DNA of 64,000 nt from Clostridia bacterium. Lineage in GTDB: Bacteria; Bacillota; Clostridia; Christensenellales; Borkfalkiaceae. Numbering within the stretch: position 1 is the first letter of the stretch; each line of letters opens with the position of its first letter. Positions 208-34,302 of the stretch are shown piece by piece. A program made the position numbers and the translations under genes. The DNA is taken from positions 4,843 to 68,842 of the forward strand of contig JAFQEV010000053.1 in the NCBI GenBank assembly GCA_017398825.1. Direction: 5' to 3'. The notes below the pieces were generated by a model. It was not told where the DNA came from, ran no database searches, and was given only the letters and a program-made list of their open reading frames with translations.

Positions 208-2565
208 TTATACCGAGGGCGACCAGTCAACGTTATCTTCAACGTAAATCGCCTTGAACACGCCACCGTCGTAACTTGCAAATTCCCAAAGGTGATTTCT
301 ATCGTACTCAATGCCGTTGTATTCAAAGCCCACGAGCTTTTTACCGCTCGGCGGAACGGGCATCGGGCTCATAGTGGAAAACGCTTGACCGTATTCGATA
401 ACGGCAGTTGCCTCGCCTGTTCCCTCGCCAACGTCTAAATTGATGGTAAAGGCAACGTAGTCCTCGTATAAACACTTAAACGGAGTTCCGTCATAATCTA
501 CGATTAAGAATAAATCGTTAAGATAATACTGCGTACCCTTATAGGCATAGCCAACGAGTTTTTTACCGCTCGGCGCTGTTGGAGTTTTGCTAACGTTTTT
601 AAAGTTCTTGCCGAGAGTAAAGGTAACCGAGGTGTTTCCGCCACCCCCGTTTAAGTTGAGATTTACCTCTATTTTAACGGGGTTATAGGTGATTTTGGGC
701 GTTAAAGTAACGTCCGATTTAATATTCCAAGTACCCGATGTTTCAATTTCATTATCGCCGTTAAGCCATGTAACTGAAATTAGGTTATCCCTTGCGGATA
801 AGGTGTACAAATTGTACTCCTCTTTATACACGACCTCTTGCGTGCTACTTACCAACTTTCCGTCCTTATCAAGCATAGAGTAATCGGCTTTGATTGACGA
901 TAAGTCATAGGTAATCTTATAGGTTTTAGGTGCCCATACCGCGTAAAGCGTTGGATTTCCCGTTAATTCCCACTTAATAGTTCCACTCAAAACGTCACTC
1001 GTGTCATTCTTATTAGCAGTCCAGCCAAGAAGATAATAACCGCCCTTTTTGAGCTCGCTGTTGGTGTTGAACTCGGTGGGCAACGTAACGTAGCTATCGT
1101 AAACGTAGAACGCCGTGTGAACGTTAGTAAAGCCGTTTTTGAATATTACTGCGTACGAGTTGGGAGTTAATACCGCTTTTATCTCCGTAGTTTCGGTTAA
1201 AAGTGAAATCTCCTCGCTCGAAAGCTCCCAAACGGCAGTATAGCCGTGTTTTGCGTTGGGTATGGGAACGTACTCTTCTGGAGAGGCAAGAACGTTATCA
1301 AGGAGAACCGTATCCACCTGCCCGTCGTAATGAACGAAGTTTACGTACGCGGTGCTTGCGTACCTTGCAACTAAATCGTCGTCATGAGCGTTGTTCCAAA
1401 TGATTTTTCCCGAATACGAGGCAACGACCTCGCCCGTAGTTTTAATCTTCCAACCGATAAATTTGTATCCGTCGGGCGCGGTGGGAAGAGGTATATCGCA
1501 CTCTACGCCAAACTGAACGCTTATTTCGCTTTTTTCAACCGTTCCACCGTTTGCATCAAGGGTTAAAACGTAGGTGTTGGGCGTGTACGTTGCAAGTATT
1601 TTTACCGAGGTTTTATTCTCGCTCGGAACGTAATTGAAATTATCCGCTAAAGGCTCGCCGTCAATAGTCCAACAGTTAAAGGTGTAGCCCTCTTTTACAG
1701 GAATTGTATTTTTTATATCTTGAGTAGGTGCACCGTATACCAAGCTACCGTCTGAAACGCTAACCGTACCGCCATCTGCGTTTAATACGTAGTTTACGGC
1801 AATCGGCTCGAACACAGCGTAAAGTTCAGGGTTTTCAATCCCGTCATACGCCCAAACGTTAGAGGTTAAAACCTCACCGCCCTCGAAAGCCCAGCCTAAG
1901 AACTTGTGCCCTGCTTTTTTGAGCACGGGAAATTCTACCGTGCGGTTGTACTTTGCAGGGATAACCATTTCCGTCAAAGTTTGGTCGCCACCAACTAAAG
2001 TACCACCGTTAAATTTAAATTTAACTTGATATGAGGCTTGCTCCCAGCCAGCTTTTATTACAACCGTGCCAACGTCAAGGTTCCAAGGCGAAGTTGAAAC
2101 GGGATCCTCTCCGTAATACCAACCGGTAAAATCGTAGCCACTTCTCGTAGGTTCTGGGAAAACTACGTTTTGACCAAAGGTTGCAAAAACGCTCTTTTTG
2201 CTAACCACAACCCCGTCGCTCTCGGTATAATTACCGCCGTTAAAGTCGAGCAACACGCTGTACGTTTTAGCTTTCCAGGTCGCAACGAGTGTAACGTTTT
2301 CTTTTTTGAGCATAAAGGGCTTTAAGTTAACGTAAACGCCATCGGAATACCAGCCGTTAAACTCGTAGCCGGCTTTGGTGGGAGTTGGCAAAGTTAAATC
2401 TTCCCAAAGCTTAGCAACGAAGGTAGTATCACCGCTGATACTGCCACCGTCTAAATTGAGCGTAACGTTAACCTGCTCGAGCGAGGGAGTTTCCTCCCCG
2501 TCTTTACAAGCCGAAACGCCAAACGCTATTAAGATACACGCCAAAAGGCATAATAACTTCTTCAT
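208..2565 (-). CDS. Surface lipoprotein built from about 10 Listeria-Bacteroides (Flg_new / InlB B-type) repeats
   Basis: Lipobox signal MKKLLCLLACILIAFGVSAC. Recurrent G(Y/H)xFxGW...LYA(V)W modules (GYEFNGWY, GYDFTGWYY, GHKFLGWAF, GYKFIGWKI). RBS GGAGAG lies upstream of the ATG. Confidence 0.8.
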   Translation of the reverse strand: MKKLLCLLACILIAFGVSACKDGEETPSLEQVNVTLNLDGGSISGDTTFVAKLWEDLTLPTPTKAGYEFNGWYSDGVYVNLKPFMLKKENVTLVATWKAKTYSVLLDFNGGNYTESDGVVVSKKSVFATFGQNVVFPEPTRSGYDFTGWYYGEDPVSTSPWNLDVGTVVIKAGWEQASYQVKFKFNGGTLVGGDQTLTEMVIPAKYNRTVEFPVLKKAGHKFLGWAFEGGEVLTSNVWAYDGIENPELYAVFEPIAVNYVLNADGGTVSVSDGSLVYGAPTQDIKNTIPVKEGYTFNCWTIDGEPLADNFNYVPSENKTSVKILATYTPNTYVLTLDANGGTVEKSEISVQFGVECDIPLPTAPDGYKFIGWKIKTTGEVVASYSGKIIWNNAHDDDLVARYASTAYVNFVHYDGQVDTVLLDNVLASPEEYVPIPNAKHGYTAVWELSSEEISLLTETTEIKAVLTPNSYAVIFKNGFTNVHTAFYVYDSYVTLPTEFNTNSELKKGGYYLLGWTANKNDTSDVLSGTIKWELTGNPTLYAVWAPKTYKITYDLSSIKADYSMLDKDGKLVSSTQEVVYKEEYNLYTLSARDNLISVTWLNGDNEIETSGTWNIKSDVTLTPKITYNPVKIEVNLNLNGGGGNTSVTFTLGKNFKNVSKTPTAPSGKKLVGYAYKGTQYYLNDLFLIVDYDGTPFKCLYEDYVAFTINLDVGEGTGEATAVIEYGQAFSTMSPMPVPPSGKKLVGFEYNGIEYDRNHLWEFASYDGGVFKAIYVEDNVDWSPSV

Positions 2566-23764: not shown

Positions 23765-23795
23765 CAAAAACCGCAAGGATTATCCCTGCGGTTTT
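23765..23795 (-). terminator. Intrinsic terminator
   Basis: AAAACCGCAGGG-ATAAT-CCTTGCGGTTTT plus a T-run on the minus strand. Confidence 0.7.
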
Positions 23796-23811: not shown

Positions 23812-24639
23812 TTAGCGCCTAAAAATCTTTCTTAAAATTAAGATTACAACCTTAATTATAATGCCTGCCGCCAAGCAAAGCACGGAAAGAACGAGTGATA
23901 ATATAAGCGTGCAGAGCAAAAAGCTTGAGCCAAAGCTCATAACGCCAAGAAAATCATCGTAAATGCCAAACGGAATAAGCCCTAACACGAGGTTAACTGC
24001 GAGCAATAAAACTATCATTAAGGGAATTGCCACGAGCGAACCCTTAATATCGGCACCGCTTAAGCTCATGTGAATAGCAATGCAAAGGCTAACGAGCATA
24101 AATACCCACCATTTCCAGCCGATTGAGAACTCTGCAAACATAGATTTCATCATTCCGCCAAAAAGGGTGAACACGTTGCCAAAGATATTCATAATTCCGT
24201 CGCTAGGAAGAAATGAAAACTCTTTAAAGTAGGTGCTAATTTGGCTAAACGTGTTAGGCAAGAAATATTGCATTCCAAAGTAAATAATAAGCGTGCCTAC
24301 GGCTATCGGAGCAACGCCGATAAAGTAGTTACCTATCTGCTGATAGATATTTCTCGGGTTCCAAGAGTGGTTAACGTAGCCCAAAACACCGTCTTCATCG
24401 TTTATTTGGAAGAACTTAACGGCGTTTACCTTGTGGAAGAAAACTAAACACATAAGGAGGTGGCTCGTTTCGTGAATAGGCGTACCTATAAGACCCGTGC
24501 CGTAAACGGAAAGCTTACTGTAATTGAACATTTTATAGAAGGTTCTATTTATTAACGAGATTAAAAATCCCACGAGATAAACGCAACCTATAAACGCTAT
24601 TACATGCCATAAAACGTTTAATAAAATTTCTACAAACAT
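23812..24639 (-). CDS. Polytopic membrane protein with an HExxH-like motif (DUF3267-like putative zincin)
   Basis: HETSH lies within the first loop/helix region and there are about 6 hydrophobic helices. The family assignment is from memory only. Confidence 0.4.
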   Translation of the reverse strand: MFVEILLNVLWHVIAFIGCVYLVGFLISLINRTFYKMFNYSKLSVYGTGLIGTPIHETSHLLMCLVFFHKVNAVKFFQINDEDGVLGYVNHSWNPRNIYQQIGNYFIGVAPIAVGTLIIYFGMQYFLPNTFSQISTYFKEFSFLPSDGIMNIFGNVFTLFGGMMKSMFAEFSIGWKWWVFMLVSLCIAIHMSLSGADIKGSLVAIPLMIVLLLAVNLVLGLIPFGIYDDFLGVMSFGSSFLLCTLILSLVLSVLCLAAGIIIKVVILILRKIFRR

Positions 24640-24693
24640 AATTTATCCCCAAAACTTATCGGGGCGGAATTCCGCCCCGGAAGTTTTTACTTG

Positions 24694-27600
24694 TTAAAGA
24701 GTTATATTGTTGTACTCTTTGGTTACGGTAGTAGAAGAAATAATCTTGTTGCCGTTACCGATAGCGCGTACTCTAATAATAATGTTAGTAATCGCTACAC
24801 CCTCGTTTGCCGTCTTCCAGTCAACGATAGTCTGTGCGTTCTTAGCGTTAATTTGAGGTTGTACTGCAACTACGGGAGAAGTAAATTCGCCACCGTTAAT
24901 GCTGAATTCTACCTCGTACTGAACAGCATCAGTAATGGTTGCCCAAGTAATGATGCCTTCACGCCAAGTAAAGCTACTTTCGTTGGGAACTGCAAGTAAA
25001 GTGATGTAGTAGCTGGTGTTGTTACCACCTGCGGACTGGGAGTCGAGATAGTAAATACCTTCATCGTCAAACGCACCGCCGAGAGCGTAAACTCTTGCAA
25101 AGTGCTTGCCTACTGCACCAGGATTGTGATTGCAAGTGCTTGCCTTTACGGTTTGCTCTACACCTGCGATAGTGTAAGAATAACCGTTGTTGTGCTCAGA
25201 TTCTTTAGTGATAGTAGCGATGATTTCGCCCGTTTCACTATAGCTCTCTGCACTGTAGGAAAGCTTAAAGTCAGGAGTGGTGAGCTGTTTGGTCTTTTGA
25301 ACGAACTTGTTCTCGTCAGAATTGATAGTAGTATAACCACCGTCACCGATAGCGATTACAACAACCGTGTAATCTTTTACTCTATTGAACTTCGGAGTGT
25401 AGCTGTAGGACTCGCCAGATACGTGAGTGTAGGTTTCAGCAACAACGCCGTCAACGTAAATAACGTAACTGGACGCAAGAGCGATACCGTCCCAAACGTA
25501 CTTGCCGGTTTCGCGACGAACTTCGGGAGTTTCAAGCTTGTATACGGTAACTTCGGTGCTCTTTTCAGAGTTGATATACTCAGTACCGTTACCGATAGCT
25601 TTTACTAAGAAGGTGTAACTGTTTCCGCCAACGAGAGAAGAGATATCCATAGTGGTACCGTTCTTTTCGCCGTTGTAGAGAGTGCCGTTCGGATAGTAAA
25701 CCTCGTAAGTCGGGGTGTACTTTTGAGCGTTAATGTTGCGGGGTGCATTCCAAATAAGTTGATTGTTGTTGAACGCAACGTCACCAAAGGTGGGAGCGGC
25801 AAGCTTAACGAACTTAGTGGTAAGACCAGCTTTAGAAGACATGTAGTAAACAGTCTTATCGGTGTTGAAATAGTTAGCAACGGTTTCCATATGAACGGTA
25901 GTACCTTCAGTAGTTATGTACTGGTTCATGTTCTGAATATCTTCAGCAGGAACGCTACCAAGACCGCTATCACCATCGAATACTACGAGGTAGCTTAAAG
26001 CGTGGAGAACGGGATCCCAGCCGAGAACGCCTTCAGACGCGTCAGCCGTGTTAATTCTAACGTTTCTCGGAGCTTCAAGGCGTTGAACGTTGATAGCGCC
26101 GGTGTAGTTAGACGCAAGCACGTCACTACCGTTACCCTTAGCACAAACTCTAACGTCGTAAGAGCCTGCCTCTAAGATAGATAAATCGTAAGAGGTGTTA
26201 CCGCTGGTAGCCTTCTCACCGTCAATGCTGATAGAATAGCCGTTTGCACCGTTGATAGTGCCGTACTTGTATTCAAAGCCTTCGATAGTGGGAGTTGCGG
26301 GCTGAGCGAGAACTTTAATACCAAAGGTTAAAGACTTAGTCTTTAAAGAACTTAAGTTAACGCGGGTAATGCCACCGTTTCTGGAAACGTTACCAACTGC
26401 TTGAATTGCAAAGTTGTAGCTCTGCTCTTCGATAACGCTGTTAGCAACAACGTCAGTTACGGAGAACTGAGTAGCAAGACCGGTCTTGTACTCTGCATTA
26501 TCTCTATAAAGCTTGTATCCGCTTGCACCTGCAACGGTTTTAAAGGTTACGGTAAAGCCCTTGGATACGTCAGCTGCGTCACTCGTAATGAAATCTTCGT
26601 CGTTTTGAACGGGAGCTGCAAGTCTGGTGATGTAAATAGGATCGGAGTACTTAGACTCGTAGGTATTTGCATCGGAGGTAATTGCCTTGAGTTGAACCAT
26701 ATAATCGCCTTCGTCAAGGTATGCATGAGCATAACCGTCCTCATCTCTTGCAAGGTTGCGCTCGGTAGAGTTACCGTCAGGAGTAGTCACTTTAACTTTG
26801 TAACCGCCTGCGTTCTGGATAAGATCCCAGTAAATACTCTTCATTTCTTGACCTTCGTGCTCAAGACTGTCGTTCCATTGTAAAACAGGAGTGGGTAAAA
26901 TAAGAACGGTCTTGGGAGTGGACCAGCTCGAGAAATAAGTGCTATCCGTGCTAACAGGCATAATGCAAACTTCAGTAGAAACGTTTGCAGTTAAGTTAGG
27001 ATACGAGTTAGTAGATAAAGTTTCGTTCTTTACGTTATTACCGATTTTAATTTTATAACCGCTAGCACCGCTAACTTCGTTCCAAACGAGAACGCCGTCA
27101 ACTACGGTAACGTTAGTTACGGTAGGTAAGTAAACGAAATCCTTCTTCTCGGAAAGCGCACCACTAAAGGTAGTAACACCGTTACCAACTGCCTTGATTT
27201 CAACTGAGAAGTTCAAGGCGTTAGAATCGTATGCAAACGAAGTACCGCTGTGGTTTTCAGCAAGAACAACGCCGTTAACTCTAACTTCGTAACCGGTAGC
27301 GCCAGCAACCGAGTTCCAGTTAATAGATGCGGTAGTGTTAGAATAAACGATTTGATCTTTGTTAACCTGACCAAGAATATCTAACTGCTTAGACTGGCTC
27401 CACTCTGAATAGTAAGAGGTGTCACCTGAAACGATAGCCTTTACTGCAATGTTGTGGTGACCAGCGGGCAAGTTGGTGTATTCGGTTTCATAGAACTCGT
27501 TAGGAAGTTCAGAACCGTTATCCTTAACCTTGTACGCGGTAGCGCCGTCAACAGCGTCCCAAGAAATATTACCAGTAGCGTCAATGCGAACTTCTTGAAT

Positions 27601-27921
27601 TTTCGCAAGCGGTTTAAAGGTCTTTGTAGCCTCGCCCTCTTCCTTTACTTTTTCGGATTTGTGCGTAGCTTTAATAGTTACGGTAAATTCAGCGCCGTTT
27701 GCTCTGAACGCATACCTGTTGGTATTAACCGTATACTCGTCACCACCGTTGATAGACACTTTGTACTGGTTAGCGTCTTGTACAGAGTCCCAGGTAATAG
27801 ACGAGCCGTCGTATCTGATGTTCGTGGGATCACCAAGCTCGAGGCCCTTACAACCCGTTAACCCTATCATTAACGTGAACGCACACGCGCACGCTAATAT
27901 TGTAAGTAACAGTTTTCTCAT
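24694..27921 (-). CDS. Large surface lipoprotein composed of at least 11 FN3-like modules
   Basis: Lipobox MRKLLLTILACACAFTLMIGLTGC (start ATG 27921 with RBS AAGGAG). Recurrent I(S/T/N)W(D/N)xVxGA(T/S)xYxV modules of about 90 aa. Confidence 0.8.
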   Translation of the reverse strand: MRKLLLTILACACAFTLMIGLTGCKGLELGDPTNIRYDGSSITWDSVQDANQYKVSINGGDEYTVNTNRYAFRANGAEFTVTIKATHKSEKVKEEGEATKTFKPLAKIQEVRIDATGNISWDAVDGATAYKVKDNGSELPNEFYETEYTNLPAGHHNIAVKAIVSGDTSYYSEWSQSKQLDILGQVNKDQIVYSNTTASINWNSVAGATGYEVRVNGVVLAENHSGTSFAYDSNALNFSVEIKAVGNGVTTFSGALSEKKDFVYLPTVTNVTVVDGVLVWNEVSGASGYKIKIGNNVKNETLSTNSYPNLTANVSTEVCIMPVSTDSTYFSSWSTPKTVLILPTPVLQWNDSLEHEGQEMKSIYWDLIQNAGGYKVKVTTPDGNSTERNLARDEDGYAHAYLDEGDYMVQLKAITSDANTYESKYSDPIYITRLAAPVQNDEDFITSDAADVSKGFTVTFKTVAGASGYKLYRDNAEYKTGLATQFSVTDVVANSVIEEQSYNFAIQAVGNVSRNGGITRVNLSSLKTKSLTFGIKVLAQPATPTIEGFEYKYGTINGANGYSISIDGEKATSGNTSYDLSILEAGSYDVRVCAKGNGSDVLASNYTGAINVQRLEAPRNVRINTADASEGVLGWDPVLHALSYLVVFDGDSGLGSVPAEDIQNMNQYITTEGTTVHMETVANYFNTDKTVYYMSSKAGLTTKFVKLAAPTFGDVAFNNNQLIWNAPRNINAQKYTPTYEVYYPNGTLYNGEKNGTTMDISSLVGGNSYTFLVKAIGNGTEYINSEKSTEVTVYKLETPEVRRETGKYVWDGIALASSYVIYVDGVVAETYTHVSGESYSYTPKFNRVKDYTVVVIAIGDGGYTTINSDENKFVQKTKQLTTPDFKLSYSAESYSETGEIIATITKESEHNNGYSYTIAGVEQTVKASTCNHNPGAVGKHFARVYALGGAFDDEGIYYLDSQSAGGNNTSYYITLLAVPNESSFTWREGIITWATITDAVQYEVEFSINGGEFTSPVVAVQPQINAKNAQTIVDWKTANEGVAITNIIIRVRAIGNGNKIISSTTVTKEYNNITL

Positions 27922-27979
27922 AGTTTTTTCTCCTTTTATATATTCAACAAGATGCAATCTTGTTTAAACTTTTCAAGTT

Positions 27980-30900
27980 TTATTCTGCCTCAGTTCCGAT
28001 AGTAAAGTTTGAGGTTGACGCAATCAAAGTTGCATCGTCTGAACTATCGCCGTTAACAGTACCCGTAAAGGTGTAGTAATTGATTGACGAAGAGCCGTTA
28101 TCAGTACTTACTGAGCCGAATAATCCACCAACCGTCTCAGAGCCGGAAACGTTTGCCGAACAATGAATTTCGTTCATGGTAACTAATATGCTACCGTTGT
28201 TTCCACTGCCCCAAGTGTTAACGTAAACGTCACCAGCAATACCGCCTACAGCATCGTTGCCGTTAACAGCTCCGCTGTTATTAACGTTAGTAAATGCAAC
28301 GGTGTAAGAACCGCCGTTATATGCATTATCCCAGCCGTTGTACACTCTACCTAATATACCGCCTACGTAATCTTTACCCATTACCGAACCCATGTTAGTG
28401 AGGTTGATAAAGGAATAAGATCCCGTACTTGATACGTCGCCAACTAAACCGCCAACGTAGTTTGCGTTACGTGCAGTAACGTCACCAACGTTTTCACACT
28501 CTTCAATCGAATGAGTAAGTCTACCTGCAATACCGCCTACGTACGAACCGTTTTTGGAGTATGCAATAGAAACTGCGTTATCGCACTTTTCAACGTAATA
28601 GCCGTGACCTACGTAACCGCCTACGTAACCGTAGTAATTAGTACCGTCAATTATCACGCCCGTTGCAACTATGCTACTGTTAACGTTGTAGCACTCGATA
28701 AGCATAACGTTTTGTAACCTACCTGCTAAACCGCCAACATACGCCTCGCCGGTAATCGTTGCCGAGCTCGTGCTCGCCTCGATTGAGGAACTACCCGTAT
28801 CGGAGTATGCATCGCCTACTAAACCGCCTACGTAATTAACGCCAGTTATATCACCCGTGTTGTTGAGTGCGCTTGCGCTGATAAGTACACTGCCGTTATT
28901 ACCACTACCCCAAGTGCTTGCACTTATGTTGCCGATAATACCGCCTACTTGAATTCCACCCTCAACGTCACCGCTGTTAGTTGCGTTTATTACCTTAACG
29001 CTGTAAGAACCGCCGTTATAACCGTTATCCCAGCCGTTGTAAACTTCGCCGATAACGCCACCAACGTAATCCTTACCGGTAACGTCACCAGAGTTGTTAA
29101 GAGTATTGAACTCGTACGAGCCGGTGCAGTTAACTAAGCCTACTAAACCACCAACGTAGTTGGAGTTTGTTGCCGTAACGTTTGCGGTGTTGGTGGACTT
29201 GGTAATAGCATTGTCAAGCCTACCTGCGATACCGCCTACGTAAATGCCGTTCTTAGCGTAATTAATTTCAACTGCGTTGTCACAGCCCTCTACGTAATAT
29301 CCGTGACCTACGTAACCACCTACGTAGCCGTAATAAGTAGTTCCGTCTAAAATATATCCCGTTGCGGTTACCGTTGAACCCTCGTTAGAGGAATCGATAA
29401 GCTTAACGTTTTCAAGCCTACCTGCTAAACCGCCTACGCGCGCATCAGCAGTAATATCTGCCGTGCTCGTACTACCGGTAATCGATGAACCGCCGTTATC
29501 CGAATATGCTCTACCGAATAAACCGCCGACGTAAGTAGTACCTTGAACGTCACCATCGTTATTTAAAACGTTCACGTTAACGATTACGCTACCGTTATTA
29601 CCGCTACCCCAAGTGCTTGCGCTGAGGTTGCCCATAATACCGCCTACGTAATTTTGACCAACTACAGCACCGTTGTTAGTGAGGTTGATTACCTTTAAGG
29701 TGTGAACGGTGGTGTTATAAGCTTGATCCCAACCGTTGCTGAGCTCGCCTATAATACCGCCTACGTAATCTTTACCCTCAACGTCACCGCTGTTAGTGAG
29801 GACAGCTACGTCATATCCGCCGTTGTAGTTGAGTAAACCTACCAAACCGCCAACGTAGCTTGCGTTCTTTGCAGTTACGTTTCCGGTGTTAGTTACGTTC
29901 TTTAAGGTGTTTGCAAGTCTACCTGCAATACCACCTACGTAAATACCCTTTTCAAGATATCTAACGTTTACGTCGTTATCGCAATCTTCAACGTAGTAGC
30001 CGTAGCCTACGTAACCGCCGATGTAACCGTAATAAGTAGTTCCGTCTAAGGTGTAACCCTCGGCTATCAATATCGTGCCTGCGTTAGAACAGGTTATAAG
30101 GCTTACGTTTTCAAGCCTACCTGCCAAGCCGCCTACGTACGAATCAGCAGTAATAGTCGCCGCACTTTGAGAGTTGGTAATAGAAGAAGTACCCGTATCG
30201 GAATATGCATATCCGATAAGTCCGCCTACGTGAGTAGTACCAGTAACGTCACCGCCGTTTGCAAAACTCGTTATAGTGAGCGTTACGCTACCGTTAGAAC
30301 CACTGCCACTCGTGTAAGTGGTAACGTAGCCGATAATACCGCCGACGTATCCTTCACCGCTAACCTTTCCGCTGTTAGTTGCATTGCCAAGCTTAAAGGT
30401 GTGACCAGCGCTGTTATAGCCTTGCGACCAAGTGTTAGAGATAAAGCCGTAGATACCGCCTACTCTATCACCGCCTTCAACCTCGCCTTCGTTTACAAGC
30501 TTAGCCATTAACGCCATATCGCCGGACTTGCTGAACAAGCCGATGATACCGCCGGTTGCATAATCGCCGATTACTTTACCGTAGTTGTAAAGATCGCTAA
30601 ATCCGGTAGCAGTAGCGTAACCGATGATACCGCCACCGTATCTCTTAATAGAAATAGTACCGTAGTTTTCAGCGTTCGTTATCGAACCTCCATTAAACTG
30701 ACCTGCTATACCGCCTGCGGAAACGTTTTCCTCATAGGTTGCAGTAGTTACGTTTGCAAAGTTCGAACAGTTGGTAATCGTACCCGTGGAGTAACCTACC
30801 AAACCGCCTATTCTACAGAAATCGCCTTTCACCTCACCCGAAACTTTAACGTTTTCAAGCGTGCCGGTGAGTTCTGCACACACACCGCCTACGTATACGG

Positions 30901-33097
30901 AATTATAAGAGGTGCTTATAATGCTTACGTTCTCGAACGTAACTTCCTTTATAGTTCCGGAAACCTTGGAGAATATTCCGAGGTTGTTAGCGGAGGTCGT
31001 TAAAGTAAAGTTTTTAATCGCAAGCCCGTTACCGAGGAAAGTTCCCTTGAATTCAAAGGGTACCCACTCGCCGTCAAAATCGCTCATATCAACGTCTGCT
31101 ACTAAAACGTAATTTGCAGACGGATTATCCTTCATTGCCATAAACGACGCGCCGTCGTAAACGAAAATGCTGTTGGGGTCTTCTTCGTAAAGGTATGCGT
31201 AAACGGTAATATCCGTAGTGTATTTCCAAGCGGAAACGCCCTTGCCCTCGCCGTTGGTAATTACCTTGTTGTTGTATTTCCAACCGATAAACCTATATCC
31301 GTCACGCGATGCAACGGGGAGCTCGAAGGTAGAACCGTATTCAACCTCAACGCTCGTTTCGTCACAAGTTACGCCGTCACCAGCAACAAGGGTTACCGTG
31401 TAAACGATAGGTTCGTACAAGAGGTCGATAGTCATGTGGCTATCACCCATAGTAAAGTTGTACTCAAGCTCAGTTTCCTTAACGTCACCGTCTACTGACC
31501 AGCCGTTGAATTTGTATCCCTCGTTTAAGGTTGCGGTGAGCGTAACGTCGTCACCCTCTAAATAATACTCTTCAACCTCAACCGAACCCGCAGCCTCGAT
31601 GCTTACGTTAACGGTGATGTGTAATTTTTGTTTGTAGTGAGCGTAAAGCTGAATTTCATCTGCATCGAACTCTAACGGAGCAAGGCTTTCACCGTCAGCC
31701 TCGGTAATCTTGTTAGCGCCCTCGTCTTGCCCGTCAAACCAGCCTAAGAAAATATATTCCGTGTAAATGGGAATGGGCAAGGTGTAGTCTTCGCCGTATC
31801 TAATGAACTTAAAGCTCGGAGATACGAAACCGCCACCGCCGTTGAGCACGAGCTTTTTGCTCTCGCCTATGTATTTTGCGTACAAGTTTTCAACGCCGTA
31901 CGTTCCCTCCTCGATAGAGGTGTAGGGAATTCCGCTGAAATCTTCCTCTGCGTACCAGTTAACGAAGGTGTAGTTGTTCTTCTCAGGCTTGGGAAGTTCA
32001 ACCGAATCTTCAATGGTGTAATCAAAGGTCGTTTCAGAACAAGTACCGCCGTTGGTGTGGAGAGTTAAGGTGTAAGTCACCATATCCCACCTTGCAAAGA
32101 ACTCGGTGTACGCGCCCGTGTAGTAAACTTTATCAATGGGAGTGCCCGTCAATAACTCGTTGTTGTACCAGCCCATAAATTGATAGCCGGGCTTGGTATC
32201 GAGAGCTTCGGGAACGTACGGTTCGTCTTCATATACCCTATATTCAACGGGGTCTTCACTAACCATATCGTAGAAGGTGAGAACTTTATATCTCTTCCAG
32301 AACGCATAAAGCCTTACGTCACCTGTAATCTTGCCCTCAAACTCAATAAACCTGCTAGTCGAGGTCGACCAACCGATAAGTTCCTTCTTTCCATCGTCTA
32401 CCGTCGGGAAAGTAGTAGTATCAACTTCAGAGCCGTAGGGAACGTCAACGGAATCTTCTCTATAAGTGCCGTCGTTATAATCGAACGTGATGGTGTACTT
32501 TTTAACCTCGTACTCGGCAACTAAACTAACCTTGCCGTCGTTTGATATCTCGTAATTAGTGTCGTTAAACACCATTTTATCGGATAAAACCATCGCTCCG
32601 TTAGAAATTTGAACGCCGTCACAGTACCAGCCCTTAAAGTCAAAACCCTGAAGCGACGCTTCAGGCATAAGAGTAACGTTAGTGTTGTACGTAACGTTCA
32701 TAACGTTTTCAGTTGTAGAAAGCGTGCCCTCGCCCGCGTCAAATTCAAACGTGTAGGTAGCGGGCAACCAGTGCATATACAAGGTGATATCCCTGTCAAA
32801 CACTACCGTGCTAACGCCCCTCTCGTCAATAATCTCATTGCCTTCGCCGTTGGGTAAATCGTACATACCCATAAATACGAAGTGCTTGCGCTTAGGAAGA
32901 GTTGCAAAGGTGAACGGGTCACCCTTGTTAACCGTCATCGTAAGCGGTGCGCTACTCTCGTATCTGTAATACGTTATGGTAACCTCGTCTGTAGTGCCAC
33001 CCTCGTCATCCTTACAACCAACGAGCGTCGCCGTGAATAACGAGCAGACGAGCATTACCGCGATAATTAATAAAAGCCTAAACTTTTTCACTTTCAA
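27980..33097 (-). CDS. 1705-aa surface lipoprotein: N-terminal Flg_new repeats plus a C-terminal array of GLUG-type (VGGLxG/IGGIAG) repeats
   Basis: Lipobox LFTATLVGC. GxxFxGW modules occupy residues about 30-640, followed by dozens of YVGG(I/L)(I/V/A)G motifs. The TTG start lies 5 nt after GAGGAGG and directly follows the upstream stop. Confidence 0.8.
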   Translation of the reverse strand: MKVKKFRLLLIIAVMLVCSLFTATLVGCKDDEGGTTDEVTITYYRYESSAPLTMTVNKGDPFTFATLPKRKHFVFMGMYDLPNGEGNEIIDERGVSTVVFDRDITLYMHWLPATYTFEFDAGEGTLSTTENVMNVTYNTNVTLMPEASLQGFDFKGWYCDGVQISNGAMVLSDKMVFNDTNYEISNDGKVSLVAEYEVKKYTITFDYNDGTYREDSVDVPYGSEVDTTTFPTVDDGKKELIGWSTSTSRFIEFEGKITGDVRLYAFWKRYKVLTFYDMVSEDPVEYRVYEDEPYVPEALDTKPGYQFMGWYNNELLTGTPIDKVYYTGAYTEFFARWDMVTYTLTLHTNGGTCSETTFDYTIEDSVELPKPEKNNYTFVNWYAEEDFSGIPYTSIEEGTYGVENLYAKYIGESKKLVLNGGGGFVSPSFKFIRYGEDYTLPIPIYTEYIFLGWFDGQDEGANKITEADGESLAPLEFDADEIQLYAHYKQKLHITVNVSIEAAGSVEVEEYYLEGDDVTLTATLNEGYKFNGWSVDGDVKETELEYNFTMGDSHMTIDLLYEPIVYTVTLVAGDGVTCDETSVEVEYGSTFELPVASRDGYRFIGWKYNNKVITNGEGKGVSAWKYTTDITVYAYLYEEDPNSIFVYDGASFMAMKDNPSANYVLVADVDMSDFDGEWVPFEFKGTFLGNGLAIKNFTLTTSANNLGIFSKVSGTIKEVTFENVSIISTSYNSVYVGGVCAELTGTLENVKVSGEVKGDFCRIGGLVGYSTGTITNCSNFANVTTATYEENVSAGGIAGQFNGGSITNAENYGTISIKRYGGGIIGYATATGFSDLYNYGKVIGDYATGGIIGLFSKSGDMALMAKLVNEGEVEGGDRVGGIYGFISNTWSQGYNSAGHTFKLGNATNSGKVSGEGYVGGIIGYVTTYTSGSGSNGSVTLTITSFANGGDVTGTTHVGGLIGYAYSDTGTSSITNSQSAATITADSYVGGLAGRLENVSLITCSNAGTILIAEGYTLDGTTYYGYIGGYVGYGYYVEDCDNDVNVRYLEKGIYVGGIAGRLANTLKNVTNTGNVTAKNASYVGGLVGLLNYNGGYDVAVLTNSGDVEGKDYVGGIIGELSNGWDQAYNTTVHTLKVINLTNNGAVVGQNYVGGIMGNLSASTWGSGNNGSVIVNVNVLNNDGDVQGTTYVGGLFGRAYSDNGGSSITGSTSTADITADARVGGLAGRLENVKLIDSSNEGSTVTATGYILDGTTYYGYVGGYVGHGYYVEGCDNAVEINYAKNGIYVGGIAGRLDNAITKSTNTANVTATNSNYVGGLVGLVNCTGSYEFNTLNNSGDVTGKDYVGGVIGEVYNGWDNGYNGGSYSVKVINATNSGDVEGGIQVGGIIGNISASTWGSGNNGSVLISASALNNTGDITGVNYVGGLVGDAYSDTGSSSIEASTSSATITGEAYVGGLAGRLQNVMLIECYNVNSSIVATGVIIDGTNYYGYVGGYVGHGYYVEKCDNAVSIAYSKNGSYVGGIAGRLTHSIEECENVGDVTARNANYVGGLVGDVSSTGSYSFINLTNMGSVMGKDYVGGILGRVYNGWDNAYNGGSYTVAFTNVNNSGAVNGNDAVGGIAGDVYVNTWGSGNNGSILVTMNEIHCSANVSGSETVGGLFGSVSTDNGSSSINYYTFTGTVNGDSSDDATLIASTSNFTIGTEAE
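28030..30520 (-). repeat. Intragenic tandem repeat, about 3.5 copies of 699 bp (233 aa)
   Basis: The landmark CTACCTGC(A/G)ATACC(G/A)CCTACGTA recurs at 28521, 29220 and 29919, an exact 699-bp period. Copies are roughly 80% identical by eye. Confidence 0.8.
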
Positions 33098-33607
33098 TTA
33101 AACCTCCTCGAATAAAGCGTATAACGTTACGTTCTTCGTTACGCGCTTGAGCGAATAGCCACCTGCACTAACGTATTGATTGCCACCGTACGGGTTATCG
33201 AACAAACCGATAAACTTGTAACCCTCTTTCTGAGTGTACGGAGGTAACGTAATATCTTTAGGTGCGTCTTTCTCATAATAGAGATAATCGTCAGTCCTAT
33301 CAGTCCCTAAACTTCCGAAAATATACCAGTTAAGGTCCTCGCGAATTTTAAGGGTGGCCGTTTGATTAGGATTAGATTCGTAATCACAGTAAATGGTTAC
33401 GGTGTGGGTGAATTCTTCAGCCTGCTCGTAAATGTAATCTTCCTTCATATCTCCGAACTTATTACCGCCGATTAAACCGCCGAGGAAGAAACCTGCGAAC
33501 GCAAGCCAGATAGGCAAGGTGTAAAATAAACCTTTAAGTGCGAGCTTGCCAAGTTTGACAGCGCCGATAAAGCCGTAGTAAATAACAAGACCTAAACAAC
33601 TCCACAT
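33098..33607 (-). CDS. Small membrane-anchored protein with one Flg_new-type repeat
   Basis: N-terminal TM helices and C-terminal GYKFIGLFDNPYGGNQYV...VTLYALF. The start is preferred at ATG 33607 (GGAGGG 9 nt upstream). Confidence 0.65.
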   Translation of the reverse strand: MWSCLGLVIYYGFIGAVKLGKLALKGLFYTLPIWLAFAGFFLGGLIGGNKFGDMKEDYIYEQAEEFTHTVTIYCDYESNPNQTATLKIREDLNWYIFGSLGTDRTDDYLYYEKDAPKDITLPPYTQKEGYKFIGLFDNPYGGNQYVSAGGYSLKRVTKNVTLYALFEEV

Positions 33608-33611
33608 ATCC

Positions 33612-34004
33612 TTAGCCCTCCAAGTTCTCGTCAATAAATATCGGATACAAAACTATATCGCCCGTAATTGCGATAACGCCCTTACCCATACTGTCAACGT
33701 ACATTTGCGCACCCATCTCATCGTATTCGGGGGTGTTGTAGAAACCTGCGAAAATAAACCCTTCTTTCGAGGGAATAGCCGAGCTGTTTACGTTAAAGTA
33801 GTCACCACTTTCAACAAGGTCGTACTTAACTGCAGCGTCATCTTCATCGCTAACGAAATATCTAACGGAATACACGTCGTCAAAACCTTCGATGCGCTTT
33901 TTCTCTTTATTCCTGATAGAGCAGTTGCCTATGCCTGCAACCGCGAACATGATGATTGCAAGTAAAAAGCTAACGACAACGCCTATAATGTAATAAGCCT
34001 TCAT
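33612..34004 (-). CDS. Small membrane-anchored protein with one Flg_new-type repeat
   Basis: N-terminal TM YYIIGVVVSFLLAIIMFAVAGIG and C-terminal GFIFAGFYNTPEYD...IVLYPIF. RBS is GAGGTG. Confidence 0.65.
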   Translation of the reverse strand: MKAYYIIGVVVSFLLAIIMFAVAGIGNCSIRNKEKKRIEGFDDVYSVRYFVSDEDDAAVKYDLVESGDYFNVNSSAIPSKEGFIFAGFYNTPEYDEMGAQMYVDSMGKGVIAITGDIVLYPIFIDENLEG

Positions 34005-34098
34005 AATATCAGCACCTCATAAAATAATCTTTCAAAATTCGTAAAAAGCTTACCGTTTTACACCCGATAACTTGTTATCGGAAAACAGTTGTATTTTT

Positions 34099-34127
34099 AT
34101 AATATCACCTTTTAATCACAAAAGCAA
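34099..34127 (-). promoter_or_regulatory. Candidate sigma-A type promoter of the surface-protein operon (TTGCTT-17-TATTAT)
   Basis: Read on the minus strand, about 95 nt upstream of the ATG at 34004. Confidence 0.35.
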
Positions 34128-34270: not shown

Positions 34271-34302
34271 ATAAAAAACCCGTGAAAATTTTTTCACGGT
34301 TA
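34271..34302 (-). terminator. Intrinsic terminator of sigG
   Basis: AACCGTGAAAA/TTTTCACGGTT stem followed by a T-run on the minus strand. Confidence 0.7.

Follow-up and report, generated by a model that had tools for sequence, protein, structure and literature searches.

In sortase-assembled pili, a minor pilin with the fold of the shaft anchors the fiber at its base. The B repeat of InlB displays a β-grasp fold without the helix, and its long β2-β3 loop forms the binding or contact site (PMC8900821). The N-terminal GLUG region of the streptococcal M26 IgA1 metalloprotease is a β-helix in the solved enzyme (PMC7695701). Presented here is an analysis of a surface-protein locus in which relatives of these modules are combined, namely a unit of five genes, g1 to g5, in a 64,000-nucleotide stretch of DNA (from contig JAFQEV010000053.1, and referred to as the window) from an uncultured gut bacterium of the order Christensenellales with a genome of 1.43 Mb. 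The g3 protein is a giant lipoprotein with a stalk of Flg_new-type repeats, and the two small proteins encoded immediately upstream, g1 and g2, are related specifically to the first of these repeats and are retained under purifying selection. The reading that we favor, at slightly better than an even chance, is that the operon specifies wall-spanning lipoprotein fibers, either adhesins or ligand binders, with g1 and g2 serving as co-functional paralogues at the fiber base.

Inspection of the open reading frames (ORFs) shows g1 to g4 to be co-oriented on the minus strand between positions 24694 and 34004 of the window. They are separated by gaps of 4 nt (g1/g2), 0-6 nt (g2/g3), and 58 nt (g3/g4), and the ribosome-binding sites of the operon read GGAGGG, GAGGAGG, and AAGGAG. 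The coordinates and the tight packing are those given in a preliminary description of the locus, which was made from the sequence and recognized four genes. The length of 1087 aa that it assigned to the last of these holds for the longest ORF, beginning with the TTG at 27957, but shortens to 1075 aa when the ATG preceded by AAGGAG is taken as the start. With g5 as an added fifth member, g1 to g5 form one conserved unit.

The overall architecture of g3 is that of a stalk followed by a repetitive array. Against Pfam, the protein scores 143.1 bits with Flg_new in four stretches (cut-off of 27 bits) and 51.9 bits with Flg_new_2, and Flg_new is matched by all ten of the g3 orthologues. Whereas the preliminary description spoke of ~600 residues of Flg_new repeats leading into a GLUG-type array of ~1000 residues, the two regions have now been delimited as eight repeats, labeled R1 to R8 from the membrane outward, and an array of ~1050 residues.

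The g1 protein consists of a single N-terminal hydrophobic segment, a cysteine, and one domain. The cysteine following the anchor is present in six of the seven g1 orthologues, and the box to which it belongs is canonical in three (ISGC, IGSC, and IGGC), atypical in the window (IGNC) and in the locus designated L040 (IRSC), and absent in L041. As judged from these boxes, g1 may be lipidated in some of the orthologues, but not reliably so. In the g2 protein, a brief hydrophobic segment at the N-terminus is succeeded by basic residues and by a transmembrane helix at residues ~27-48, after which comes an expanded R1-type domain formed by residues 66-169; from this N-terminal topology the C-terminal domain is predicted to be extracytoplasmic. 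That each of the two small proteins amounts to an N-terminal membrane anchor plus exactly one Flg_new-type repeat, as proposed earlier, is borne out by profile comparisons with hhalign, which gave probabilities of 91% for g1 and 96% for g2 against the g3 repeats and 97% for g1 against g2. Flg_new is the sole family matched by these proteins, in 8 of the 15 members of the g1/g2 family at E ≤ 0.01.

The kinship is with one particular repeat. Eight position-specific hidden Markov models (HMMs), R1 to R8, were built from ten aligned giants, and the best model was R1 for 13 of the 15 small proteins. The R1-specific HMM gives 24-39 bits on g1/g2, and six of the eight g2 proteins score 34-40 bits with it versus ≤14 bits with every other repeat. 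When the g1 and g2 orthologues are compared with the giants by BLAST, the best match is in every case at residues ~40-125, corresponding to the first repeat; the colinearity of g1 with the giant extends over residues 11-118 of the latter and takes in the signal peptide. In addition, the signature G[YF]xFxG[LFM][YF]D...GGxQ, devoid of tryptophan, is common to g1, g2, and R1. On the basis of this R1-specific homology, g1 and g2 are separately encoded, membrane-anchored paralogues of the membrane-proximal module of the giant. The earlier notion that the "same repeat" occurs in the small proteins and in the giant is correct with respect to Flg_new kinship but requires narrowing, as g1 and g2 are paralogues of R1 rather than of any repeat.

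The search for related loci took in whole genomes from 36 further species of the genus and from 24 other families of the order. Those with g1 and g2 before the giant are referred to as A-type, and those of sister species without g1 and g2 as variant B. The order g1-g2-giant is kept in at least eight lineages. It extends as g1-g2-giant-(extra genes)-g4-g5 in the genome of the window itself (G000), in G020, and in L039, L040, and L041, the last three of which carry an extra Flg_new protein between the giant and g4; a partial order is seen in L034, L035/L036, and G005. In G020, a Christensenellaceae bacterium, g1, g2, g3, and g4 are colinear, and the same order occurs in G005, a metagenome-assembled genome of a yak-rectum Clostridia member, on a contig that ends within g2. 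L034 and L035/L036 are metagenome contigs found through their g1 homologues, and both show g1-g2-giant. The ORF at the g2 position of L040 was assigned by position and architecture; it has no BLAST match to g2 and a weak R1-HMM score. L039, L040, and L041 were reached by walking from g4 homologues. The identity of g1 to the window copy drops to ~29%, and no A-type locus for which the upstream end is available lacks the g1-g2 pair.

Between G000 and L034, the ratio of nonsynonymous to synonymous substitution rates (dN/dS) is 0.225 for g1 and likewise for g2, the synonymous distances (dS) of 0.43 and 0.81 being unsaturated, and it lies in the range of 0.16-0.30 for g3 and g4. Under purifying selection of this kind (dN/dS ~0.22), g1 and g2 are not decaying fragments. 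The preliminary description had looked to synteny across genomes for support and had named two circumstances that would speak against it, namely small genes found apart from the large ones and small ORFs left over from a disrupted larger gene. Neither applies, because the small genes accompany the giant in their clade and are under selection.

A related explanation is that g1 and g2 arose when the 5' part of the giant gene was duplicated, each comprising the signal peptide and the first repeat, and are carried along with the operon as remnants without a function. The layout of g1 is indeed that of the first ~120 residues of the giant, colinear and with an R1-type domain, and the family is very narrow: a word-index homologue search among 5.8 billion proteins returned three clusters for g1 and two for g2, further relatives being obtained by walking from g4 homologues. 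Functionless copies are difficult to reconcile, however, with ORFs that stay intact in at least eight lineages down to that ~29% identity, with dN/dS values like those of g3 and g4, with ribosome-binding sites and a 4-nt coupling that are kept, and with an RNA-derived contig that spans the g1/g2 junction. The g2 motifs REDLNW and GYSL are, moreover, invariant in a five-member g2 alignment, although weaker in the two most divergent members. We regard such an origin without function as highly unlikely.

Genes g3 and g4 occur in 10 of the 37 species of the genus, and 7 of these 10 are without g1 and g2. Variant-B loci contain, between g3 and g4, one to three accessory lipoproteins of ~380-456 aa, commonly with approximately four divergent Flg_new-like repeats and some of them colinear with the giant N-terminus. 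Comparisons with hhalign against these accessory lipoproteins are weak (48% for g1 and 6.5% for g2), and for that reason orthology between g1/g2 and the variant-B set is not established; R1-type HMM matches were obtained in 3 of 15 variant-B accessory proteins. As far as can be judged from sequence, short stalk paralogues are a constant feature of the locus, their form differing between the variants. Note that the variant-B accessory lipoproteins often carry a Cys-rich spacer directly after the lipobox, for example GSCDSCGGCDDCSGGCNLVRCDESC, which may constitute a membrane-proximal segment linked through metal or disulfides.

These loci also bear on the suggestion that g1 and g2 are, instead of docking partners, export or folding helpers of the giant, or its regulators at the membrane level; they might, for instance, keep hold of R1 while the giant is translocated by Sec and lipidated, or serve as substrates or adaptors of g5. 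The same conservation, coupling, and R1-type homology would fit such a role, the upstream position means that g1 and g2 are translated first, and g5 is always present. Yet variant-B giants of similar size and with the same R1 do without both proteins. Although the present data do not tell a helper role from stable docking, we consider the helper explanation rather unlikely.

The C-terminal array of g3 contains 23 [V/Y]GGxxG motifs, which follow one another regularly every 28-39 residues. From residue 860 onward (nt 27983-30520) it is organized as a super-repeat of 233 aa (699 bp) in 3.6 copies, a number that rests on short-read assembly across the repeats; identities are 39-65% between copies and 54-65% among the three full copies. 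Contigs of public runs from a source-like sample break within this 699-bp super-repeat region, at window positions 30201-30227. The window protein scores just below the cut-offs for both Glug (PF07581, 19.0 versus 20.5 bits) and, at residues 653-754, Peptidase_M26_N (27.6 versus 27.7 bits), and Glug is matched at E ≤ 0.01 in seven of the ten orthologues with a best E value of 4.9e-11. A motif scan of the whole protein showed no HExxH, no LPxTG, and no C-terminal transmembrane segment, and PDB sequence searches, whether the query was g3 itself or a 10-sequence profile of g3, gave at most the InlB B repeat, at E = 0.066. The possibility that g3 is an IgA1 protease of the M26 type was ruled out, as there is no Peptidase_M26_C match and no HExxH anywhere in the protein.

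The operon might, alternatively, function in nutrient capture rather than adhesion, in the manner of surface lipoprotein systems known from other gut bacteria. The GLUG β-helix would then bind or cleave a polymer of dietary or host origin, with g4, g1, and g2 acting as accessory binders. β-Helices are frequent in polysaccharide lyases and hydrolases, and the genome is small and the organism probably dependent on foraging. In none of the loci examined, however, does a transporter, glycoside hydrolase, or protease gene adjoin the unit, and g3 has neither a catalytic-domain match nor the metal-binding motif just mentioned. An operon devoted to nutrient capture is in our view unlikely.

The g4 lipoprotein is composed of 11-12 modules of ~80 aa each, in keeping with the chain of at least 11 FN3-like modules recognized earlier. 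A profile of eight g4 modules matches the FN3 domain of PDB entry 6M76 with an E value of 1.7e-5, and the weaker matches are all to FN3. With the whole of g4 as the query, no fn3 match was obtained in Pfam at E ≤ 0.01; PF00041 is annotated (precomputed) on several of the orthologues. The protein contains no LPxTG motif and no C-terminal transmembrane segment.

The lipobox sequences of g3, LVGC, and of g4, LTGC, fit the pattern [LVI][ASTVI][GAS]C, and lipidation of both proteins is predicted from sequence. The genome encodes Lgt (128 bits) and LspA (106 bits), and no sortase (PF04203) was found in the assembly, which is 92%-complete. Surface display in this organism seems, from its gene content, to rest on lipid or transmembrane anchors. 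At least six more proteins of the genome, 465-792 aa in length, contain Flg_new repeats, among them a 785-aa ORF at window positions 208-2565.

With respect to expression, contigs of a bovine metatranscriptome run match the window with ≥99% identity at 25691-25938 in g4, at 28922-29089 in g3, and at 33557-33823 across the g1 stop and the g2 start, and the flanking 40 kb are sparsely covered in the same run. These contigs, thin evidence as they are, fit expression and co-transcription of the operon, which appears to be expressed in vegetative growth.

In each of the 14 loci examined, the fifth gene comes next after g4, at a distance of ~50 nt in A-type loci, with a GC-rich hairpin, CGGGGCGGAATTCCGCCCCG, in the window, and of 7-12 nt in variant-B loci, from which the hairpin is absent. 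The HExxH motif of g5 is invariant in 94 aligned homologues, and the conserved features of the family are G-x3-HExxH plus H69, H91, H190, S194, and D197. The dN/dS value is ~0.12. The family comprises 1427 clusters at E ≤ 0.001, with proteins of ~270 aa, and g5 gives no match to Pfam or NCBIfam even at an E value of 10. Its structure model is confident, with a predicted local distance difference test score (pLDDT) of 95 and a predicted template modeling score (pTM) of 0.91. When PDB folds were searched with this model, nothing reached E ≤ 0.001, SpoIVFB being aligned with a template modeling score of only 0.2. On these grounds, g5 may represent an undescribed family of membrane metallo-enzymes. 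Its functional tie to the operon is likely but not certain, because homologues also stand alone. Large (more than 1400 clusters), unannotated, and confidently modeled, with a HExxH that never varies and with neither a Pfam family nor a PDB fold to match it, the family deserves a description of its own.

In the reading of the operon as fiber-forming, g3 and g4 would be exported and lipid-anchored through the action of Lgt and LspA, and their stalks, consisting of eight β-grasp-type Flg_new repeats in g3 and 11-12 FN3 modules in g4, would extend through the cell wall. The head of g3, a GLUG-type array that is probably β-helical, would bind ligand and thus serve as an adhesin or polymer-capture protein. 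Having one domain each, g1 and g2 would have to remain close to the outside of the membrane, level with R1 of the giant. We infer that they work with the fiber base, either by packing against the fiber or by organizing or stabilizing it. The g5 protein would probably be a membrane-embedded metallo-enzyme acting, perhaps as a protease, on an anchored protein. Physical docking of g1 and g2 onto g3, as put forward in the preliminary description, is plausible, and this step accounts for about half of the overall estimate given at the outset.

A number of points weigh against this interpretation. With regard to g1 and g2, seven species of the genus do without them, their scores with Flg_new of 12.3 and 22.1 bits, respectively, lie below the cut-off of 27, and the AlphaFold2 model of g2, computed from a 5-sequence alignment, is poor (pLDDT of 56). 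The GLUG array is without a PDB sequence match and gives no indication of a ligand or an activity. The RNA support consists of three short contigs from one run in which DNA carry-over is possible. Finally, g5 may be a mere conserved neighbor, given the size of its family; in five further species of the genus, homologues stand by themselves in unrelated surroundings, and in the window the GC-rich hairpin parts g5 from g4.

The features of the locus are listed in Table 1. The upstream neighbor of the unit is a sigma factor gene that matches SigG best among the NCBIfam models, with a score short of the equivalog cut-off, and the operon lies between it and a gene of the YlmC/YmxH family. The location downstream of sigG, with an intervening terminator and a sigma-A-like promoter, had been noted before, and both the hairpin and a conserved extended -10 element were found. 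Of the five upstream regions that were aligned, all keep the block TGATA[T/C]TAT and four keep TTGCTT; a consensus promoter scanner omitted the candidate because its -35 element fits only three of six positions. The palindrome CGATAACAAGTTATCG, which in the closest relative, L034, has one change and is hence imperfect, is a possible operator.

Table 1. Positions and characteristics of features of the g1-g5 unit and its surroundings (window coordinates unless a locus is named).
Feature	Position	Strand	Remarks
g1	33612-34004	-	130 aa; anchor residues 1-27; Cys28 in IGNC; R1-type Flg_new-like domain ~44-125
g2	33098-33607	-	169 aa; start is the ATG 3' of GGAGGG
g3	27980-33097	-	1705-aa lipoprotein; lipobox LVGC, Cys28; start TTG 33097 or GTG 33091
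g3 stalk, eight Flg_new/Flg_new_2 repeats	31187-32986	-	residues 38-637
g3 repeat R1, membrane-proximal	32762-32986	-	residues 38-112; closest to g1 and g2
g3 GLUG-type (VGGxxG) array	27983-31150	-	residues ~650-1705
g4	24694-27921	-	1075-aa lipoprotein; lipobox LTGC; start is the ATG 3' of AAGGAG
g5	23812-24639	-	275-aa polytopic membrane protein; HExxH is H56, E57, H60
Intrinsic terminator of the sigG-like gene	34280-34299	-	hairpin CCGTGAAAAAATTTTCACGG, then T-run
Candidate sigma-A promoter	34099-34127	-	TTGCTT (34122-34127), 17 nt, extended -10 TGATATTAT (34099-34107)
Perfect 16-nt palindrome CGATAACAAGTTATCG	34065-34080	-	~20 nt downstream of the -10
GC-rich hairpin CGGGGCGGAATTCCGCCCCG, weak T-tract, between g4 and g5	24660-24679	-	partial terminator or attenuator
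Terminator hairpin 3' of g5	23767-23795	-	likely 3' end of the unit
Accessory lipoproteins with Cys-rich spacer	L022 5550-6746; L023 14833-16203; L025 1606-2784; L032 13071-14294; others		

Given the position of the unit between sigG and YlmC/YmxH, the presence of spore-surface or forespore-membrane proteins was also considered. These two neighbors, together with ypeB, which adjoins the locus in G020, are what such a sporulation operon would have in its favor. The sigG adjacency is not kept in other genomes, however, the neighbor being ypeB in G020 and a recombinase gene in L040 and L041. In the window the terminator parts sigG from the operon, whose promoter, with its conserved extended -10, is of the sigma-A type, and transcripts are present in a gut metatranscriptome. 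A role in sporulation is scarcely credible and, in light of the promoter type and the non-conserved synteny, was rejected. Six of the seven variant-B loci have thiF and a GCAxxG gene as upstream neighbors. In L039, ORFs encoding 173 and 168 aa adjoin each other at positions 653-1686, ~900 nt upstream of g1; both start with MC[FL]FF, and they show no resemblance to g1 or g2.

In L040, a perfect 25-nt inverted repeat pair, at positions 691-715 and 901-925, flanks 185 nt and occupies precisely the interval from a tyrosine-recombinase gene to g1, an arrangement that corresponds to that of an invertible, phase-variable promoter. A recombinase gene is found at the same place in L041, but the repeat there is only 75%-complementary. 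A look for signs of phase variation in the window revealed only AT-rich inverted repeats of 10-11 nt and no recombinase gene, and by these sequence signs the operon is not phase-variable in the window genome. A far bolder proposal would make of the five genes a single fiber-building machine of a sortase-free monoderm, in which a heteromeric base formed by mini-proteins or by the ~400-aa paralogues would grip R1, g5 would be a new metalloprotease family of undescribed fold that matures or releases anchored proteins, and an invertible promoter would operate in some lineages. Taken as a whole, it is decidedly unlikely.

Gut bacteria of the order Christensenellales are heritable and associated with health, and almost none have been cultured. 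Here a sortase-free member of the order devotes ~0.7% of its 1.43-Mb genome to two lipid-anchored fibers, and selection keeps separate copies of the membrane-proximal module of a fiber beside the fiber genes. If it is true that these copies organize the fiber base, they would provide a simple, testable principle for the lipid-only anchoring of very long proteins.

A comparison with known systems places each of the parts in context. Like the InlB/Flg_new proteins (PF09479 and PF18998), g3 contains repeats of this kind, eight in number, and g1 and g2 one divergent copy each. InlB differs in that it is non-covalently associated with the wall and has a single B repeat behind its leucine-rich repeat domain, whereas in g3 the repeats make up a stalk anchored by lipid, and the single-repeat paralogues are membrane proteins with genes of their own. 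A 35-aa insertion in g2, which includes REDLNW, would fall at the same place in the predicted strand order as the InlB loop, although the model is too poor to use. The M26 proteases resemble g3 in that its residues 653-754 align with Peptidase_M26_N and are followed by GLUG motifs. Unlike them, g3 is without the M26 catalytic domain, HExxH, G5 domains, and LPXTG, and its array, built from the 233-aa super-repeat, is approximately four times longer. The FN3 modules of g4 are related by profile (E value of 1.7e-5) to that at the C-terminus of an Enterococcus GH31 enzyme (PDB 6M76), but only FN3 modules follow the lipobox of g4, with no enzymatic or known binding domain. Like the membrane-embedded HExxH proteases (site-2 proteases such as SpoIVFB, and the M48 and M50 families), g5 is polytopic and has an invariant HExxH with further conserved histidine and aspartate residues; it differs from them in having no family match and no PDB fold match.

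The likeness to sortase-assembled pili is a conceptual analogy only, in that a short protein with the fold of a long fiber is co-encoded with it and would be cell-proximal. The genome here has no detected sortase, there is no LPXTG or pilin motif, and the anchors are lipid or transmembrane segments with no covalent polymerization implied. The preliminary description stated that such an arrangement was not known as a described system, and searches of the literature likewise found no account of separately encoded, membrane-anchored copies of the proximal repeat of a fiber. Thus, whereas the parts, namely InlB-type B repeats, the M26 GLUG region, and FN3 chains, are known, the arrangement in which they occur here is real, conserved, and undescribed.

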